From Minisyncoccota bacterium (GTDB lineage Bacteria > Patescibacteriota > Minisyncoccia > Phycocordibacterales > XYD1-FULL-46-19), in NCBI GenBank assembly GCA_041663165.1, contig JBAZRF010000001.1, forward strand, positions 736-64,735: a stretch of 64,000 bases of DNA, in the 5' to 3' direction. Of the stretch, positions 40,567 to 54,778 are shown piece by piece. Position 1 is the stretch's first letter. Every line of letters starts with the position of its first letter. The notes below the pieces were generated by a model. The model was given only the letters and a program-made list of their open reading frames with translations, did not search any database and was not told the DNA's origin. Made by a program: the position numbers and the translations under genes.

Positions 40567-40622
40567 AAACCAAAGCGTCCCGGCACTAAACGATGCGCGG
40601 GACGCGAGAACACATATGAGGG

Positions 40623-40907
40623 TTAAGGGTTGGCAATCGGGGCGAGGACCCTATCTTCAAGCTGCCGAATGATGGCGTCTGGGTCAGTTCCCATAAGCCC
40701 TTCCCGAAGAGAAGAGAGAAACTGGGCAGCTAGGCAACCCTTGGCGTGTTGGAGATATCCTCCCCAACGTCCAGGGATCTCGGCCTGCTGGTCAATCTCT
40801 ACTCCCATTACCACGGCAACTTTTCTAAGGTCGCCACTTGTCAGAGCGTTCTTAAGATCTCTTCTCCCCTCCGGACTTATTCGTCCGGCCACAATCTTTT
40901 CGTCCAT
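40623..40907 (-). CDS. Hypothetical protein, GC-rich foreign-looking gene
   Basis: Start set at MDEKIVAGR with RBS AAAGGAG. A consensus promoter lies upstream. No recognisable domain. Confidence 0.45.
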   Translation of the reverse strand: MDEKIVAGRISPEGRRDLKNALTSGDLRKVAVVMGVEIDQQAEIPGRWGGYLQHAKGCLAAQFLSSLREGLMGTDPDAIIRQLEDRVLAPIANP

Positions 40908-40929
40908 AAGGACTCCTTTCCCCGAGGAC

Positions 40930-40975
40930 CCCCTCGGAACACCTACTTGACATAATAGCATTTTAATTATAAAAA
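40930..40975 (-). promoter_or_regulatory. Near-consensus sigma70 promoter (TTGACT-17-TATTAT) for the 40623-40907 gene
   Basis: Reverse complement reads TTGACTttttataattaaaatgcTATTAT. Confidence 0.5.
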
Positions 40976-40995
40976 GTCAAGCATAAATTTGTTTT

Positions 40996-41020
40996 ATTAA
41001 AAAGCCGAAGCCGCGGGATT
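40996..41020 (-). terminator. Intrinsic terminator hairpin (AGCCGCGG-GATTGAA-CCGCGGCT) + U-tract on the minus strand, downstream of the 41054-41572 gene
   Basis: Perfect 8-bp stem. The minus-strand read continues CTTCGGCTTTTTAATAAAAC. Confidence 0.6.
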
Positions 41021-41053
41021 GAACCGCGGCTGGGGGTCAAACAAATTGTCGGA

Positions 41054-44311: not shown

Positions 44312-46057
44312 TTAAGCCGCTCCTTTGCGATCTAACTCCTTTAAGCTGTCCCAGTGTTCTTTTCCGCGGTGTCGGAGTTCTTCTCCTGGTTTCAAGAGGA
44401 CATCGAGACTAACGTTCTGGGCATCGCTGCCTCGGTAACAACCGAGAGTCTCCGCCGCTAGCATGTGGGTCACAAGGACGAAATGGACCCCACGCTCGTA
44501 CAGGGCCAACGCGGTCCTGTTGGACGAAGTAATCGCTACGAAATTCGCGGTGGGGTTATCCCTGCTCAGGTGGGCAGCGAGAACCCCGTTGTCTTTGATG
44601 TCGGGCGCGGTTGAGATCATCGTCTCGACTTCGGAGAAATCGATACCCGCTCGAGACTCTTCACTGCAAGCGTCTCCGAATCGGCAGGGGACACGATCTT
44701 TCAACAATCTTGCGAAAATGTCTGGATCATGGTCAATCACGAGGTAATCAGTCTCTCTTCCTTTGAGCCCAAGCCCGATTGACTTACCGAGCCTGTCATA
44801 TCCCACTAGCACTATTTTGGGGTGCATGGTCTCGTCTGGCGCCAGTGGTTCCTGCTTCCATACTGTCAACTTGTCCAACCACCAAAGCTGTGAACGTAGC
44901 TTTTGGTAAAGGTCCAAATTGTACTTGATCAAGTATGACGATATCGTCATACTGACCACCGTCACCACAATGAAGGGTGGTAGGATCGTTGGATCCAGGT
45001 GCTTCAAGGCCACACCCTGGGCCACGAGCACGAGGCTAAACTCCGACAACTGGCCGAGGGCCAAACCGGAGTTAAAGGCCGAGGACCTTTCGTACCCGAA
45101 CAGGCCGACGATGATCATTACTAGGAGCGGCTTGATGACGATGACCGCAACAGACATCAGCACGATTAGGGTCAAATGGTTATAGATAATCAGGCCAAAT
45201 GATCCCAGCGAAGCACCACTGGTTGTCGGAGCGAGTTGGAGCCCTAGCGCCGCGAAGAACAAGACGGTGAAGAACGACTTCAACGCCTTGAAGTCCCCGA
45301 TGATCTCATGCTGGTACGCTAACGACGCCATCGCTAGGCCGGCTAGGAACGAGCCGATGCCCATCGACAGTTTCATCTTGGCCGCGTAAAAGGCGCAGAC
45401 GAACAGCACTCCCATAGCTACGACAAAAAGGGTTTCCCTTTCCCTCGCTACGCACCAGAACAGCCGTGGAAAAACGAACTTTCCGCAAACCATTACGATG
45501 AGTAAAATCAACCCGGCGGTAATCGTTCCTGTGCTTATCAACTCCGTCACTGAAAAATCATTGGCGGTAGTTAATATTGACAGGGCGAAAATCGCCATCA
45601 CGTCCTGCATTACTAGAATGCCTATGGAGATGCGTCCGTACAGGGTGTTAAGGTCGTATTTCTCGCCTAAGACCTTGACGACCAGCATCGTGGAGGAAAA
45701 GGATGTTGCGAAGCCGATGTAAGCACCCGCAATGCTAGTCATTCCCAGTAGCTTGGCCAGACCAAAACCTAAACCGAAGCTGGCGATGACTTGAAGACAT
45801 CCTCCGCCAATTGCGACAAGGCCGAGTTTCTTCAGGCGTGACAAGTCCATCTCGATTCCGATTACGAACAACATGATCGTAGCGGCGATTCCAGACATGT
45901 CACCGATCGACTCTACCTGGTTTATCCAGCCAAGGCAGAGAGGTCCTACTACTACTCCCGCCAAGACGTAGGCGGGGATCATGGGTTGCCGGGCTATTTT
46001 GAAAACTAGCCCAAACAATGCCGCTAACACGAACAAAATTCCTATATCCTGTTGCAT
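44312..46057 (-). CDS. Monovalent cation:proton antiporter-2 (CPA2/Kef-type) with C-terminal RCK/TrkA-N domain; GC-rich
   Basis: About 12 TM Na_H exchanger core. The segment KIVLVGYDRLGKSIGLGL is a Rossmann-type RCK fold. GC content is well above the flanks. Confidence 0.8.
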   Translation of the reverse strand: MQQDIGILFVLAALFGLVFKIARQPMIPAYVLAGVVVGPLCLGWINQVESIGDMSGIAATIMLFVIGIEMDLSRLKKLGLVAIGGGCLQVIASFGLGFGLAKLLGMTSIAGAYIGFATSFSSTMLVVKVLGEKYDLNTLYGRISIGILVMQDVMAIFALSILTTANDFSVTELISTGTITAGLILLIVMVCGKFVFPRLFWCVARERETLFVVAMGVLFVCAFYAAKMKLSMGIGSFLAGLAMASLAYQHEIIGDFKALKSFFTVLFFAALGLQLAPTTSGASLGSFGLIIYNHLTLIVLMSVAVIVIKPLLVMIIVGLFGYERSSAFNSGLALGQLSEFSLVLVAQGVALKHLDPTILPPFIVVTVVSMTISSYLIKYNLDLYQKLRSQLWWLDKLTVWKQEPLAPDETMHPKIVLVGYDRLGKSIGLGLKGRETDYLVIDHDPDIFARLLKDRVPCRFGDACSEESRAGIDFSEVETMISTAPDIKDNGVLAAHLSRDNPTANFVAITSSNRTALALYERGVHFVLVTHMLAAETLGCYRGSDAQNVSLDVLLKPGEELRHRGKEHWDSLKELDRKGAA

Positions 46058-46235
46058 GGTCCAAACCCTTCCGCCGATCTGGTTAAAACGCTAGAGTTAG
46101 TTAAATTGGTAGAGAACATCTCTCCATTTTCATTACTGGCACATTTTATTTATTATGTCAAGTATTAAAAACAGCAAAAAATCCCCAAAAAAGGATTAAA
46201 TTCAAGAAAGATCTTAAATTAATTTTAGCTCTAGT

Positions 46236-46688
46236 TTATTGCACTATTCTAGGCAGGGGTACGCCATCTCGGCCGTAATATAAGTAGTTACCCCTCCAGT
46301 TGTTATGACTAGATGAATAGAGAGCTGTTTGACACACTTCTCCTTCCTCGGGCATTTCCACTTGGCCGATAATTCGCTCAAAGAGGGTGATTGACTTGTT
46401 GTCATTATCTTCGGAATAAAAGGGTCCAGTTTTCGAACCAATATTACAATTAAAGATCTCTGTTCGCCAACAATTTTCCTCTAGTTTGTCAGGGCAATCT
46501 TTAGTTTGTTTGTAATTTTTTGACCAACAATCATTATCTTTTAAGGAGCAATTTCGAAAAACCATAATCCCTGTTGGGCTCAGTATCTCCATTCGGGGAG
46601 CATTAAAAACAGAATAAATTCCCCAAAGGACAAAGCCAATAACAACTAATAAGAAAATAAAAATCAGGTACTTTAATAGTTTTTTCAT
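46236..46688 (-). CDS. Hypothetical membrane-anchored Cys-rich protein
   Basis: N-terminal TM. About 8 Cys in the extracytoplasmic part. Confidence 0.45.
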   Translation of the reverse strand: MKKLLKYLIFIFLLVVIGFVLWGIYSVFNAPRMEILSPTGIMVFRNCSLKDNDCWSKNYKQTKDCPDKLEENCWRTEIFNCNIGSKTGPFYSEDNDNKSITLFERIIGQVEMPEEGEVCQTALYSSSHNNWRGNYLYYGRDGVPLPRIVQ

Positions 46689-48837: not shown

Positions 48838-48900
48838 TAGGTTTAATCATATCTTTTTCCCAGTTTGACCACAAGTGGATAGTTTGCGATAATGTAATTA

Positions 48901-50142
48901 ATGCTAAATCGTTCGTCTGCCAAATTTGTTATTTGGTTTGTTGTTTTGGTGGCAATTATTGCCGCCTTTGGTCTGGGCAATTATTGGGGTCAATCTCGCG
49001 CCGCTAGTCAAATCGCCCTTGACTTAGTTGGTCAAGAAGTTGGTAAACCAGACAAAGTTGATTTTTCACCCTTTTGGAAGGCTTGGAATCTAATTAACGA
49101 AAAATATATTGCCGATAATGGTAATAATCATAGCACGACGACCAAAATCGCCACTGATCAAGACAAGGTTTGGGGGGCAATTGAAGGTCTGACCACCTCG
49201 CTCGGCGATCCTTACTCCGTATTCTTGCCACCCGAAAAGAAAAAACGCTTCGAAGAAGATATCCGCGGTAATTTTAGCGGTGTTGGCATGGAAGTGGGGA
49301 TTAAGGATGAGGTCTTAACTGTCATTACCCCTCTGCCTGATTCGCCGGCAAAGAAAGCCGGAGTGCAAGCCGGTGACCAAGTCGTTAAAATTAACGATAC
49401 AATTACAGCCGGCCTCTCAGCTGATGAAGGGGTTAACCTTATTCGTGGTGAAGAGGGGACAACGGTTCGCTTAACTTTGGTGCGAGGCAAAGAAAAGCCA
49501 TTTGAAATTTCTATCACTCGTGCGGTCATTACCATCCCAACGCTTGACACAAAAAAACTGGCTGATGGAATTTTCGAAATTAAACTTTATAACTTTTCGG
49601 CTACCTCGCCAAATCTTTTTCGAGCGGCCTTGCGCCAATTTATTGAATCTGGTTCAACCAAATTAATTGTTGATCTGCGTGGCAACCCGGGCGGTTTTCT
49701 TGATGCAGCCGTCGACATGGCTAGCTGGTTTTTGCCAGCCGGCAAACCGGTCGTAATCGAGAAACATGGTGGGGGAGTAGAAGACAAAATTTATCGCAGT
49801 GCCGGTTATGATATTTTTAATGACAAACTAAAGATGGTAATTTTGGTTGATCAGGGTAGTGCCTCGGCCGCTGAAATTTTGGCAGGCGCTTTAGCTGAAT
49901 ATGGCAAGGCGATTTTGGTTGGTCAAAAAACTTTTGGCAAGGGTTCGGTTCAAGAACTGATCCCGGTAACGGGTGGCAGCTCGCTTAAATTAACCATTGC
50001 TAAATGGTACACACCCAAAGGCAAATCCATTTCAATTAACGGCTTAATGCCTGATATCTTGGTACCGGTTACTGAAGAAGATATTAAGGCCGGCCAAGAT
50101 CCGCAACTTGAGAAGGCTATTGAAATTTTGGGTAATAAGTGA
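48901..50142 (+). CDS. ctpA: Carboxyl-terminal processing protease (S41, Ctp/Prc)
   Basis: PDZ domain plus S41 catalytic region (DLRGNPGG, ...GSASAAE...). Confidence 0.85.
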   Translation: MLNRSSAKFVIWFVVLVAIIAAFGLGNYWGQSRAASQIALDLVGQEVGKPDKVDFSPFWKAWNLINEKYIADNGNNHSTTTKIATDQDKVWGAIEGLTTSLGDPYSVFLPPEKKKRFEEDIRGNFSGVGMEVGIKDEVLTVITPLPDSPAKKAGVQAGDQVVKINDTITAGLSADEGVNLIRGEEGTTVRLTLVRGKEKPFEISITRAVITIPTLDTKKLADGIFEIKLYNFSATSPNLFRAALRQFIESGSTKLIVDLRGNPGGFLDAAVDMASWFLPAGKPVVIEKHGGGVEDKIYRSAGYDIFNDKLKMVILVDQGSASAAEILAGALAEYGKAILVGQKTFGKGSVQELIPVTGGSSLKLTIAKWYTPKGKSISINGLMPDILVPVTEEDIKAGQDPQLEKAIEILGNK

Positions 50143-50601: not shown

Positions 50602-50875
50602 CCGCCACTACCTCAACGGTTGATTTTGTTTTGACCAAACCAGCAAAACTCAATTTACGTTTGGAGCCAAATTTAACTACACCCGGGACACTGGCGAAAA
50701 TAGTGTGGTCCTTGCCGAGGCGAGTATTTTTGCCAGCCATGATTTTCGTCCCGCGCTGGCGCACAATAATACTGCCCGCTTTAGCCGTTTGACCATCAGC
50801 CAACTTTGTTCCTAGATATTTAGGATTAGAATCACGTAGGTTTTTAGCAGTACCCCCTGCCTTACGATGTGCCAT
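50594..50875 (-). CDS. rpmA: 50S ribosomal protein L27
   Basis: [16 protein letters not shown]...IIVRQRGTK. Its 3' end overlaps rplI convergently by 8 nt. Confidence 0.9.
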
Positions 50876-50895
50876 ATTGGTATAATATTAACGAC

Positions 50896-51084
50896 ATGAG
50901 TATAAAGGAAATGACAGAAAAAGTAAAGTTTTATTCGTCTTGGTGGCGAGCTCGCGAGAAGGAATTATTTGTTGCTCTACTGGTTGTTTTGGTTGCCCTG
51001 TTATCGTTCGGCCTTGGCCGTTTATCAAAAATTGAAGGTTGCCAACAGCCGGTTCAGATTGAGAATGCTTTACAGACGCAGTAA
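50896..51084 (+). CDS. Small hypothetical membrane protein
   Basis: A TATAAT element lies at about 50881-50889. One TM helix. The start is moved to MSIKEM. Confidence 0.35.
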   Translation: MSIKEMTEKVKFYSSWWRAREKELFVALLVVLVALLSFGLGRLSKIEGCQQPVQIENALQTQ

Positions 51085-51152
51085 CGCCCCGGATCATACC
51101 GATCGATCCGAGGCGCCGTTGATGGGGAAGGAATATACGGGCGTTGTCGTTG

Positions 51153-51665
51153 CTAGTCCCAAACCAGCTCGGAGTATTCGAGCATGATCTGGTCGAGGCG
51201 TTCGGCCGTGAACTTGCCGGCGTCAACCTCTTCCTGGGTGACAATACCACACTTGACCATGTCGTTGATGATGGCCAAGGTTACTGCTGGACAGTTCTTG
51301 CTACGAGCGGCGTTGGTCACTCGCGACCAGAGTGTCTTCCCGCGGAAGTTTAGGCGAGACCATTCCCACCAATCCGTGTCTCTGGGGTCGCCAGCTAGGT
51401 TGGAGGTCCAGACGAAGTGCCACTCCAGATACTCTGGGTTGAAGTAGAAAGTTCGTTCGCCTAGAACTAGTGGCCAGACAAGTAGTCCGCCGTCCCAGCA
51501 TGGGCCGGCTAACTGATCGCCCTCGGGCATTTCCCAGTACCAGGCGGGGACGTCCAACCCTCGGATCCAATAGCACCCCTCAAAGGGGTTTCCGTCGGCT
51601 TGAACGGTTTGACAAACTGCAACCGACAACAACACGAGAACAAAGAACGCATACGACGACTTCAT
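51153..51665 (-). CDS. Hypothetical secreted Trp-rich protein, GC-rich foreign-looking gene
   Basis: Signal peptide MKSSYAFFVLVLLSVAVCQTVQA. 13 Trp. No recognisable domain. Confidence 0.5.
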   Translation of the reverse strand: MKSSYAFFVLVLLSVAVCQTVQADGNPFEGCYWIRGLDVPAWYWEMPEGDQLAGPCWDGGLLVWPLVLGERTFYFNPEYLEWHFVWTSNLAGDPRDTDWWEWSRLNFRGKTLWSRVTNAARSKNCPAVTLAIINDMVKCGIVTQEEVDAGKFTAERLDQIMLEYSELVWD

Positions 51666-51782
51666 GGGCAAATCCTTTCGCGTGGCGCCCTTTATTGGGC
51701 TGTGGGCGCCGGTAGTTCATCCGTGAAAAATTATAGGACAAAAATAAGATAAAAGCAAGTAATAGAATTATTATGAAAAAGA

Positions 51783-52075
51783 CAATTGCTCCCGGCGGTT
51801 TACCCTAACCGGGAGCAATTAGCCAAATGAATCCGTTTGAGATCAGGCACGACAGAGGAAGTGCCTTTGCCTTACACACCGCGGCTTGAAGCCCTTGACA
51901 GATGCGACAATCGAGCTGCCCTTTTCCCCGATATTCGATCTTCCTTCCGGGGTGGGGGATTTGCTCGACGTACTCTTTGTTTCTGCTGGGGGACTCCCAA
52001 GTCTTCGGAAGTGCATAGTTCTTTCTCCTGATTCGGAGTGGCCACAACGGTCACTCATCCTTCCATAAAAATCTT
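51783..52075 (-). ncRNA. Candidate GC-rich non-coding transcript (promoter TTGACT-17-TTAAGAT at ~52075-52110; 12-bp perfect IR terminator at 51784-51820)
   Basis: Only overlapping unconserved ORFs occur on both strands. A promoter-like element and a hairpin plus U-rich tract are on the minus strand. Confidence 0.25.
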
Positions 52076-52134
52076 AACATCGCAGTTGCCATGAAGTCAA
52101 CACATTGTCAACGGGGGATATTTAAAAAGCTGGC

Positions 52135-52143
52135 TGTGGATAA
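52135..52143 (-). promoter_or_regulatory. Perfect DnaA-box consensus (TTATCCACA on the minus strand)
   Basis: The plus strand reads TGTGGATAA, immediately upstream of the iteron-like repeats. Confidence 0.4.
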
Positions 52144-52152
52144 CTACTATAT

Positions 52153-52274
52153 ATGTCGCACAACATAGATTTTGCGACATAGCGCTAGAGCTAATCTAGC
52201 GCTAATGTTGCAAAATCTAATCTTGGCGCGACGTGCTTCCCTATCATGTCGCGCAAGATATTTTGCGGCATAGC
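52153..52274. repeat. Iteron-like array: three copies (direct, inverted, direct) of a ~30-34-bp element with core TAGATTTTGCGACATAGCGCT, plus a 9-bp palindrome AGCGCTAGA/TCTAGCGCT
   Basis: R1 52153-52186, inverted copy 52198-52234, R2 52246-52274. Aligned by eye. Confidence 0.6.
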
Positions 52275-52418
52275 TTTAATTTAATTATTTTATTTAAAAT
52301 ATTTTTCTCGCTTCTCCTAAACTCCGTCACTAATTTTACTAGTCCTTACCCCTAACATTTACTACCAAAAAACCGAAGGATTTAACCCTCCGGTTTTTTG
52401 GTTTTTTGCGTTGATCGA

Positions 52419-52928
52419 TTAGACAGACTTGCCAGTATCCTTACCCCAACAGGGCTTGCTCCAATTCCAATGACGGTTGCCTTCTTTCTTCATTAACCAC
52501 ATGGCGTACTCAATATTGTCGTTGGTCTTATGAATATCGAAGCCCAGAGCCTGACTTTGGCTAAGGTGGTACTTCTCATTGATTTGAAAGATGCCAACAT
52601 CTAGCGGATTTTTATCTCCGCGCATGGCTTTGCCATTTTCATCGTATTGACGAAAGGTGCTCTCGCAATTAGCGATCCGTAGAGCGGTATCGGCATGAAG
52701 ACCGTACTTGGCGCTCGTTTCGATGATTTGATCATAAACAGCGGCGCTGGCGGTAGTTGTTGGGCGCTCAATTGAATAAGTCTTCTCGATAACCGGTTGA
52801 TTGTTATCAAACCTGCTAGCAAGTAAGGGGTTAAGAGCCAAAGCTGGTCCCGTTGTTGAGCTCGCCGTAATGATGAGGCTTGCTAAGCCTATTTGTAGGG
52901 TTGAATAAATAAGCCAATTGAAAACCAC
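52419..52928 (-). CDS. Secreted lysozyme-like / transglycosylase-like domain protein
   Basis: N-terminal hydrophobic anchor. ...IANCEST...GDKNPLDVGIFQINEKYH resembles the catalytic Glu region of lysozyme-like (SLT/Rpf-type) folds. Confidence 0.5.
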   Translation of the reverse strand: MVFNWLIYSTLQIGLASLIITASSTTGPALALNPLLASRFDNNQPVIEKTYSIERPTTTASAAVYDQIIETSAKYGLHADTALRIANCESTFRQYDENGKAMRGDKNPLDVGIFQINEKYHLSQSQALGFDIHKTNDNIEYAMWLMKKEGNRHWNWSKPCWGKDTGKSV

Positions 52929-53491: not shown

Positions 53492-54778
53492 TTATAAATA
53501 ATTTAAGGGATTTAGGTAAGCGTTATAGGAAGCAATTGGCAAAGTATAGGTACCGCAACCAGGCACTTTGCTCTTGAGCGAACTTACTTTTACTCCGTCT
53601 GAAGCATAGAGCGAAAAATGCAAATGGGGTCCAGTTGAGTAGCCGGTGTTACCAGAAAGAGCAATGACCTCTCCCCGCTTAACGCTTTGGCCAATATTAA
53701 CTTTGATTGAAGAAAGATGACCATAGAGCGTCGAAAGCCCATTATCATGTTTGATCAAAATCCATTTACCGAAAGAAGCTCCGGCACAGGTTTTATCGGT
53801 ATCGCCGGTTCCCGCAACCTGTCCATTTTCGGCAGAACGTATTTGGTCGCCAATATTGGCCGCGAGGTCAATGCCATTATGGCCTTTGCCGTTATAGACT
53901 GTCTGATGGCTCTGGGCGAAGTCGGTATTGCCAAAACCCTGAGTGATAAGATGTTTAAGCAATGGCCAGCCGATGGTGCCGGTACCGGTGCTTGGTAATT
54001 TGCTCGGATCAAGAGCGTAGCGCAAATCGGCTTCAGCTTTGGCAATCTCGGCCTCGACTTCCTGTTTTTTCTTTTTGCGGTCGGCGAGCAGTTTTTGGTA
54101 AGCCGATTCTTTGCTCTTGGTCTCAGTTAGCAAGGTGTTCTTAACTTGCTTGGTAATATCAACGGCTTGTTTTTGATCAGAGAGATCTCCTTTTAAATCA
54201 GCTAACTTGTTTTTTTCTTGCTCCTTTTGGCTCTTGTTTACTTCGAGAATCTGTTTGTCGCCCCTTAAGCTGGCAACATGATTATTTAGTTTTTCGCTCA
54301 AGGATTGAAATTTACCGAGATTGTCCCAGAGATCAGTCAGACGGTTAACACTCGCTATTATCTCTGGCAGGTTGCTAGTTTCGGTTTGCTTAATTTCGCG
54401 TAGCGTCTCAGCGAGAACAGTTTTATCATCGGTGATTTTTTCAGCTGTCGTCTGAATATTTTTTGCCAGGTTATTAATATTACTATCGGTTATCACAATC
54501 TTGTTTTGCGTTGAGACGAGGCTTGTTTGTAGTTTTTGTCTCGTCAAGTCAATTTGCTGAATTTCTTTTTTGAGAGAGTTGCCCTGTTGCCTCGTCGTGT
54601 CGATTTTTTGTTCATATTGTTTTATTTCCTCATCCAATTTTTTTACCGTATTTTGCCGATCACTAATTGTGCTCTTAATTTCATCAACCGAAACTGCTAA
54701 CAAAACGCTAAAAGTAAATAAATTAACGATTACAAAAAGTAAACTTAAAAATATATTAATTAAGAATTTTTTGTGCAT
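53492..54778 (-). CDS. M23 family metallopeptidase with N-terminal coiled coil (EnvC-like)
   Basis: HNGIDLAA...GNTGYSTGPHLHFSLY (HxxxD / HxH M23 motifs). Long coiled coil. Confidence 0.85.
   Translation of the reverse strand: MHKKFLINIFLSLLFVIVNLFTFSVLLAVSVDEIKSTISDRQNTVKKLDEEIKQYEQKIDTTRQQGNSLKKEIQQIDLTRQKLQTSLVSTQNKIVITDSNINNLAKNIQTTAEKITDDKTVLAETLREIKQTETSNLPEIIASVNRLTDLWDNLGKFQSLSEKLNNHVASLRGDKQILEVNKSQKEQEKNKLADLKGDLSDQKQAVDITKQVKNTLLTETKSKESAYQKLLADRKKKKQEVEAEIAKAEADLRYALDPSKLPSTGTGTIGWPLLKHLITQGFGNTDFAQSHQTVYNGKGHNGIDLAANIGDQIRSAENGQVAGTGDTDKTCAGASFGKWILIKHDNGLSTLYGHLSSIKVNIGQSVKRGEVIALSGNTGYSTGPHLHFSLYASDGVKVSSLKSKVPGCGTYTLPIASYNAYLNPLNYL

Follow-up and report, generated by a model that had tools for sequence, protein, structure and literature searches.

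Bacterial SH3b domains that bind the cell wall are known from lysostaphin, from the cell-wall-binding domains (CBDs) of phage endolysins and from proteins in which SH3b is associated with NlpC/P60 (e.g., Protein Data Bank (PDB) chains 9ovi_B, 6rk4_A and 6ilu_B). Small bacterial open reading frames (ORFs) can have their own promoter and terminator, and the leader-peptide attenuators of the trp, his and pheA type place a promoter, a short ORF, an intrinsic terminator and a structural gene in that order. Long inverted repeats are familiar from dif/Xer core sites and from palindromic operators such as the 28-bp IR1 operator of QacR. Here we compare with these systems a GC-rich stretch at 51100-52080 of a 64,000-nt window (the whole stretch of DNA that was analysed) from a metagenome-assembled genome (MAG) of Candidatus Paceibacterota, members of the Candidate Phyla Radiation (CPR). 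On the minus strand it carries a gene for a secreted Trp-rich protein and, ahead of it, a short transcription unit with its own promoter (P1); a conserved palindrome array with a DnaA box lies just outside, upstream of P1. We consider it reasonably likely that the stretch is a vertically inherited, fast-evolving cassette of two genes in a cell-envelope neighbourhood, a small coding gene followed by the gene for a secreted SH3b-like protein.

Protein searches and locus look-ups yielded at least 8 independent relatives of the Trp-rich gene, which together with the window make the nine loci compared here. The ORF itself corresponds to the NCBI protein WC640_00295 (100% identity), encoded on a contig of 110,945 bp, and two further public contigs are 100% identical over the stretch. 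In all 8 relatives the Trp-rich gene lies between a gene for an SLT-like protein and rpmA. The encoded proteins are 59-63% identical to that of the window in L001, L002 and L003/L004/L005, and 28-40% identical in L006, L007, L011, L013 and L014. Compared with the ribosomal proteins encoded nearby, the Trp-rich protein evolves far faster. The window and L001, for example, share 96% identity in L27, 86% in L9 and 63% in the Trp-rich protein, and for L006 and L007 the values are 96%, 90% and 41%. L006 and L011 encode identical L27 proteins and Trp-rich proteins that are 77% identical.

The Trp-rich gene (51153-51665, minus strand) encodes 170 aa from its ATG, or 172 aa from an upstream TTG. The protein contains 12 Trp (8.2% of the mature chain), one fewer than the 13 counted in the earlier note. 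A segment resembling the signal peptide reported there is present: the N-terminus, MKSSYAFFVLVLLSVAVCQTVQA, is encoded at 51597-51665 (minus strand) and, as read from the sequence, has the n-h-c layout expected for Sec secretion, MKSS / YAFFVLVLLSVAV / CQTVQA, with cleavage predicted before the D of DGNPF. The A-x-A|D cleavage site is kept in 8/8 aligned homologues. No Pfam family matches at E <= 1 (including the SH3b families SH3_3 and SH3_5), and searches of NCBIfam, PHROG and PDB sequences gave no match, in keeping with the earlier statement that no domain is recognisable. A structure model adds to this picture. The AlphaFold2 model (mean predicted local distance difference test (pLDDT) score 84.3) consists of the signal peptide (residues 1-23, with a helix at 3-17 and a low-pLDDT linker at 16-24), an SH3b-like beta-barrel at about 30-86 and a five-helix domain at 98-169, with a conserved DPRxTxWW motif at the junction of barrel and helical domain. 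Compared with the known SH3b domains, the protein lacks a Pfam SH3b sequence match and a catalytic domain, its barrel is joined via DPRxTxWW to the five-helix domain, and Foldseek searches of the PDB and BFVD returned nothing significant. No informative structural neighbour was found for the helical domain.

Searched with a profile, 1.84 billion cluster representatives (clusters at 50% identity) yielded 75 relatives at E <= 1e-3, 44 of them at E <= 1e-10. Family members have the DPRxTxWW junction motif and the helical domain in common. The few that are named are all hypothetical proteins, from Paceibacterota and one Nanoarchaeota MAG. The latter (P0058, 408 aa) extends the DPRxTxWW/helical-domain family to a DPANN archaeal MAG, and another member (P0014, 331 aa) carries a tandem duplication of the family within one protein. 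No Pfam domain was found in the 8 longer members scanned (283-533 aa) or in a ninth long match (P0069, 675 aa). We rejected P0065, a TPR protein, as probably a false relative. The Trp-rich protein, modelled with an SH3b-like barrel, represents an undescribed family of secreted proteins that numbers about 75 clusters. The resemblance in fold, together with the neighbouring M23 and SLT-like genes, suggests that the barrel may bind peptidoglycan or another polymer of the envelope.

The Trp-rich gene is under purifying selection (ratio of nonsynonymous to synonymous substitution rates, dN/dS, 0.13-0.33). In the one pair that is not saturated, L006 and L011, its dS of 0.94 is similar to that of rplI (1.09), which argues for vertical descent, and the gene appears to be vertically inherited.

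Transcription of the Trp-rich gene would start from a promoter of its own (P2, 51730-51758, minus strand), with TTGCTT at 51758-51753, a spacer of 17 nt and TATAAT at 51735-51730. The promoter scanner did not list P2, the -35 element of which matches at only 3/6 positions, and an identical TTGCTT-17-TATAAT is found in L001. At the same position L006, L007, L011, L013 and L014 have TTGACT or TTGACA with TATAAA, TAATAT or TATAAT. The 5' untranslated region (UTR; 51673-51710, minus strand) contains a hairpin, GGCGCCC...GGGCGCC (51684-51710), followed by the Shine-Dalgarno sequence AAAGGA (51673-51678). The same hairpin and Shine-Dalgarno sequence occur in L001, and UTR hairpins of an analogous kind in the L006 clade.

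The upstream unit is bounded as the earlier note described it, by a promoter and an intrinsic terminator. P1 (52071-52111, minus strand) has a -35 element TTGACT (52100-52095), an extended -10 element TG-n-TAAGAT (52076-52071) and a further TTGACA upstream (52111-52106). The site previously written as TTGACT-17-TTAAGAT (52100-52071) was scored here as TTGACT-18-TAAGAT with TG ahead of the -10, 9/12 matches and the sole strong match in the region. Both hexamers are constant and the spacer is variable in L001, L002 and L004; the L006 clade has TTGACG-17-TAATCT with TGn. Conservation of -35 and -10 while the spacer varies is the signature of a real promoter. Transcription is predicted to start at about 52064, giving a transcript of about 290 nt. 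Close to its 5' end is a leader hairpin (52036-52056, minus strand; GAGUGaCC-GUUGU-GGcCACUC), weaker here than in the relatives. Single-sequence folds place a hairpin of 8-9 bp with a different sequence at the same place in 8/8 relatives; the alignment-based consensus is weak, the alignment being poor. The terminator (51775-51820, minus strand) has the perfect 12-bp stem noted before (51784-51795 / 51809-51820), followed by GUCUUUUUC with the U-tract at 51775-51783, and is a plausible intrinsic terminator. Every relative in which the two genes are split has a strong terminator at the same place, unrelated in sequence.

What the unit encodes is less obvious from the window. The earlier note saw only overlapping, mutually exclusive small ORFs. 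Overlapping ORFs of 38-80 aa do occupy 5/6 frames of 51783-52075, but one of them stands out on comparison, as the position of the frame opened by the ATG at 52016 is kept in every relative. This ORF (51843-52016, minus strand) encodes 57 aa beginning MHFRRLGSPPAETKSTSSKSPTPEGR and including the stretch MHFRRLGSPPAETK. A Shine-Dalgarno sequence, AGGAG (52025-52029), lies 8 nt upstream of the ATG, and the stop codon is 22 nt ahead of the terminator stem (12-30 nt in most loci). All nine loci have a GGAG-type Shine-Dalgarno sequence 5-12 nt before the start, which is ATG except in L006 (TTG). The ORFs of the syntenic relatives have 67, 55, 71, 82, 66 and 98 codons, except in L002 and L004, where the ORF and the Trp-rich gene form one continuous frame. 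Gene callers had independently annotated it in L001, L011, L013 and L014.

The fusions in L002 (1138-1908, 256 aa) and L004 (4274-4960, 228 aa) open at the small-ORF start, and their C-terminal 160 residues are the Trp-rich domain. They contain neither a terminator nor P2 between the two parts, and what was the signal peptide turns into a transmembrane anchor with a cytoplasmic tail of 65-90 aa. L002 and L004 have the fusion in common and are non-sister lineages by housekeeping genes. Their N-terminal extensions are alike (E 1.5e-4), as are the small-ORF peptides of L011 and L014 (E 1e-5), both E-values coming from a tiny database.

Dinucleotide shuffles gave per-locus P values of 0.013-0.12 for the openness of the frame, and a Fisher combined P of about 2e-5 over the 9 loci; the test is somewhat generous, as the shuffled segment takes in AT-rich downstream DNA. 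Over the same spans the other two forward frames contain 0-7 stops. About 16-25 N-terminal residues can be aligned, with the motif SPPAE-x7-SPTPE in the window, TPPPE-x8-SPTPE in L001 and SPAGE-x8-SPADLE in L002. Window and L001 are identical at 8/16 of these residues, and 4 of those 8 codons differ synonymously (ACC/ACT, CCG/CCT). When the peptides of the relatives were matched to translations of window positions 51780-52070, the best match was in the frame of ATG 52016. The DNA from start codon to terminator is unalignable even between L006 and L011, and because of this no dN/dS could be computed for the small ORF. The earlier note had made its view depend on the lack of a conserved ORF under purifying selection; what proved to be conserved of the ORF is where it lies, its start signals and its N-terminal motif, and not the rest of the peptide.

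Several observations weigh against a coding role. The ORF of the window taken alone is unremarkable relative to chance (P = 0.12), 5/6 frames of the unit are open, and its GC content by codon position is atypical (0.47/0.59/0.59, vs about 0.6/0.42/0.65 in L007, L011 and L014). Past about 25 residues the peptides of the relatives are unrelated. In L006 (3448-3796) the ORF is split into overlapping frames of 55 and 72 aa by a frameshift, either real or an assembly error; the 72-aa frame ends in ...RTGTDN, like the C-termini in L011 and L014. The case for coding cannot be made from this genome alone and comes from the relatives. Taken together, the sequences suggest that the unit most probably serves as the mRNA of a small protein, rich in Pro, Ser and Glu and of low-complexity appearance, of which only the first 25 or so residues would be constrained. 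It resembles bacterial small ORFs with their own promoter and terminator in being monocistronic, in its Shine-Dalgarno sequence, ATG, stabilising 5' hairpin and intrinsic terminator, and in being maintained under little sequence constraint. Unlike type I toxins and many small membrane proteins it has no hydrophobic segment and belongs to no known family, and unlike typical small ORFs it at times becomes, by fusion, a cytoplasmic tail of the secreted protein encoded downstream.

Other explanations of the P1 transcript were considered alongside a small coding gene. The earlier note favoured a structured non-coding RNA, and a discrete, GC-rich promoter-to-terminator unit of about 290 nt with a conserved 5' hairpin is what such an RNA gene might look like. 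The Rfam comparison it had proposed returned nothing relevant, however: at gathering thresholds the whole window contains one tRNA only, and at E <= 10 the region 50800-52500 gave only sub-threshold chance matches, on a bidirectional terminator and elsewhere, so that no threshold tried produced a match to the unit. The fold is unremarkable (z-score -2.2 for the sense strand, much of it due to the terminator, and -2.9 for the antisense strand), and the body of the unit cannot be aligned among close relatives, so that no structure is conserved save the 5' hairpin and the terminator. Conserved instead are the Shine-Dalgarno sequence, the start codon and the ORF, and in L002 and L004 the same start forms the N-terminus of the Trp-rich protein. 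We regard a structured RNA as very improbable. Decay, the alternative offered in the earlier note, has more in its favour but is still unlikely: in this genome and in L001 the unit would be a remnant with a non-functional ORF and a transcript that is at most a promoter-proximal spacer. The window ORF is the second shortest and its length is reached by chance with P = 0.12, its C-terminal half is rich in Arg, Cys and His and resembles translated junk (as in L001), codon-position GC departs from the usual pattern in the window and L001 but follows it in L007, L011 and L014, and the frameshift in L006 implies that loss is tolerated. Decay is at odds with the integrity of the Shine-Dalgarno sequence, ATG, leader hairpin, promoter and terminator, with a promoter that shows stronger conservation than adjacent coding DNA, and with the N-terminal motif common to the window and L001, which has been kept through synonymous changes. 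It is also conceivable, at rather long odds, that the ORF is a regulatory leader, the translation of which would modulate termination at 51775-51820 and hence read-through from P1 into the Trp-rich gene, with P2 providing basal expression. The conserved order of promoter, short ORF, terminator and structural gene is that of the trp, his and pheA attenuators, most loci have the stop codon close to the terminator stem, it seems to be the act of translation and not the peptide sequence that is under selection, and Pro-rich stretches (SPPAE, PPPE, PPPPLP) could stall ribosomes. Unlike those attenuators, the locus has an ORF of 55-98 codons, which is long for a leader peptide, and an independent promoter past the terminator in every split locus; the fused L002 and L004 have no terminator at all. 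No run of regulatory codons is evident, in the course of no systematic search for one, and minimum free energy (MFE) folds show the terminator and no evident antiterminator, no search having been aimed at alternative pairings.

A further explanation concerns the cassette as a whole and is compatible with the two-gene reading instead of excluding it. The cassette could be a replacement islet, with alleles that pass horizontally from one Paceibacterota lineage to another when the conserved flanks undergo homologous recombination; such exchange would account for both its high GC content at third codon positions (GC3) and its fast divergence. We consider this somewhat unlikely, and a better prospect than decay of the upstream unit. 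Judged by L27, L9 and the S41 peptidase, L002 forms a third lineage, approximately equidistant from the two clades, yet it has a cassette of the window type (66% identity), and its fused N-terminal extension is held in common with L004, of the housekeeping clade of the window. The Trp-rich protein has not diverged in proportion to the housekeeping proteins, GC3 is 0.69 and highly conserved DNA flanks the cassette. On the other side, the Trp-rich gene and rplI have matching dS values in the unsaturated pair, mobility genes and relatives among viruses or plasmids are lacking, and nine loci make the pattern in L002 only a lead. The preferred reading remains that of a two-gene cassette, for which we also count the fact that the promoter and terminator logic is kept while the sequences differ.

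Composition bears on the age of the cassette. GC content is 0.52-0.58 over about 50950-51700 and 0.47-0.50 from 51700 to about 52150, compared with 0.447 for the whole window, and the Trp-rich gene (GC 0.56, GC3 0.69) differs from 28 other genes of the window (GC3 0.38-0.50). The cassette of the relatives is also GC-rich (0.53-0.59 vs a locus background of 0.42-0.50). Thus, the enrichment that led the earlier note to speak of a GC-rich island is real, but the island is not a recent insertion: the atypical composition is present at the same site in 8/8 relatives, and an equally GC-rich cassette at the same syntenic place in all relatives is therefore an old shared feature. High GC would be a stable property of the cassette across lineages and not a mark of recent import. 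No integrase, transposase or other mobility gene was found nearby, and there are no viral or plasmid relatives. A phage or mobile origin was rejected, as neither a 24-mer core of the upstream element nor the protein family has a match in IMG/VR and the protein has none in PHROG. A second GC-rich gene in the window (44312-46688; GC 0.52, GC3 0.64), between cysS and dnaB, encodes a Na+/H+ exchanger with a TrkA_N domain, beside an ORF of 150 aa with no known family. In L001 cysS and dnaB are adjacent, so that the exchanger segment looks like an insertion.

The palindrome array (52124-52296, no strand) lies outside the interval singled out by the earlier note. It is built of three palindromic units, whose arms of 11 nt (ATGTCGCAAAA / TTGTGCGACAT) enclose inner spacers of 4, 8 and 6 nt; a drawing with two long hairpins and a closing stem is equally valid. 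Within it is an invariant 28-mer with inverted arms in an 11-6-11 layout (52153-52180). A perfect DnaA-box 9-mer, TTATCCACA (52135-52143, minus strand), is located about 35 nt upstream of the -35 element of P1. It is one of two perfect copies in the 64 kb, forms no cluster, and is kept in 7/8 loci, L002 having ATATCCACA. A 42-nt core of the element reads GTCGCAAAATCTATGTTGTGCGACATAT...TTATCCACA, and a 54-nt core (52130-52183) runs from CTATGTCGCAAAATCTATGTTGTGCGACATAT to TAGTTATCCACAG. The array is the best-conserved DNA of the neighbourhood, above rpmA: between the two clades the 54-nt core is 81-93% identical, vs 61-75% for rpmA DNA and 37-49% for the Trp-rich gene. A profile search (nhmmer) found it single-copy in each locus and in the window, and it has no Rfam and no viral match. 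We rejected a repeated regulon motif, because the half-site ATGTCGCAAAAT occurs elsewhere in the window at chance level only.

The paired positions of the array show compensatory change. Twelve of 36 pairs are altered on both sides, vs 4.3 in shuffles (none of 500 reached the observed value) and 2-4 in slid controls. The covariation extends to the linkers between the units, which a simple model of three operators does not predict. A tally of pair types is balanced between G.U (10 cells) and A.C (11 cells), and for neither strand was a promoter found that could feed the array. This balance and the lack of a promoter favour an element acting at the level of DNA, and a strand-specific RNA was rejected on the same grounds. 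The array could be a set of protein-bound inverted repeats or a cruciform, and quasi-palindrome correction during replication could be the source of the apparent covariation. Its position suggests a function in control of P1.

Given its inverted arms, we compared the array with sites that act in chromosome replication and resolution. Genes are almost all on the plus strand from 6.8 to 40.6 kb and mostly on the minus strand from 41 to 64 kb (switch at about 40600-41050), and cumulative GC skew has its maximum at 50-52 kb, so that the window probably spans the replication terminus region. The 11-6-11 layout of the 28-mer and this terminus-like location recall dif/Xer sites. Unlike dif, the array has three units with spacers of different length and linkers that covary as hairpins, and it lies directly upstream of a promoter. 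A dif site was rejected, since the identity of the 28-mer to dif of E. coli (or B. subtilis) is 17/28, a value equalled or exceeded at 11 other sites in the window. The best dif-like 28-mers are at 46136-46163 (CTGGCACATTTTATTTATTATGTCAAGT, 18/28 to E. coli dif, intergenic) and 48882-48909 (GTTTGCGATAATGTAATTAATGCTAAAT, 19/28, overlapping the start of the S41 peptidase gene). An origin of replication (oriC) was rejected on account of the single DnaA box, the maximum of GC skew and the converging genes.

We propose the following for expression of the cassette. From P1, below the palindrome array and the DnaA-box 9-mer, a transcript of about 290 nt would start, comprising the 5' hairpin, the Shine-Dalgarno sequence, the 57-codon ORF and the intrinsic terminator. 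P2, followed by the UTR hairpin, would then drive the gene for the 170-aa secreted protein. Proteins that bind the array and the DnaA box may control P1, and the secreted protein may work with the neighbouring wall hydrolases or on the wall of a host cell. A bolder proposal, to which we give little credence, is that array and DnaA box form an undescribed DNA-level control or recombination element of Paceibacterota that governs a hypervariable, GC3-rich secreted SH3b-like protein. Such an element could be a DnaA-dependent switch coupled to the cell cycle, or an anchor for allelic exchange, and the protein could serve these episymbionts in interaction with the cell wall or a host surface.

The surrounding genes form a minus-strand series in the order glutamyl-tRNA synthetase, M23 peptidase (53492-54778), a 96-aa membrane protein, the SLT-like, lysozyme-like protein (169 aa, 52419-52928), the intergenic region and the Trp-rich gene. 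The intergenic region, from the SLT-like gene to the Trp-rich gene, measures 747 bp and has as its upstream border a bidirectional terminator hairpin (52361-52407, either strand), which ends the SLT-like gene. This hairpin is symmetric, with A-runs and T-runs on either side, and is the source of several spurious sub-threshold Rfam matches to miRNAs and sRNAs. A spot of variable insertions, next to an invariant element, separates the SLT-like gene from the conserved array. It is empty in the window and occupied by a different small gene in each relative: a 75-aa membrane protein in L006 (2668-2895), a 72-aa Cys-rich protein in L007 (2827-3045) and a 134-aa response-regulator-like protein in L011 (2616-3020). 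Past the Trp-rich gene are a tiny ORF on the plus strand and then rpmA, rplI and the S41 peptidase gene. The tiny ORF (50896-51084, 62-71 aa), convergent with the Trp-rich gene, encodes a single-pass membrane protein that has no family match and is kept in every relative (where it is called as genes of 49-63 aa). Elsewhere in the window are genes for MurG, FtsW, MraY, D-Ala-D-Ala carboxypeptidase, MraW and two MreB paralogues. With the M23 and SLT-like genes these genes make this a cell-envelope neighbourhood.

The comparison with relatives has corrective value, in that a unit of overlapping ORFs that looks like an RNA gene is best read as a small, fast-evolving protein-coding gene. That finding is of modest interest, and the part most worth following up is the conserved palindrome array with its DnaA box. 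The Trp-rich protein belongs to an unnamed secreted family for which a confident two-domain model exists and which is found in CPR bacteria of ultra-small size and at least one DPANN archaeon; little is known of the envelope and host-attachment proteins in such organisms. The array and DnaA box are among the most constrained non-coding sequences here, and offer a target in the search for a regulator, in organisms whose transcription control has hardly been characterised.

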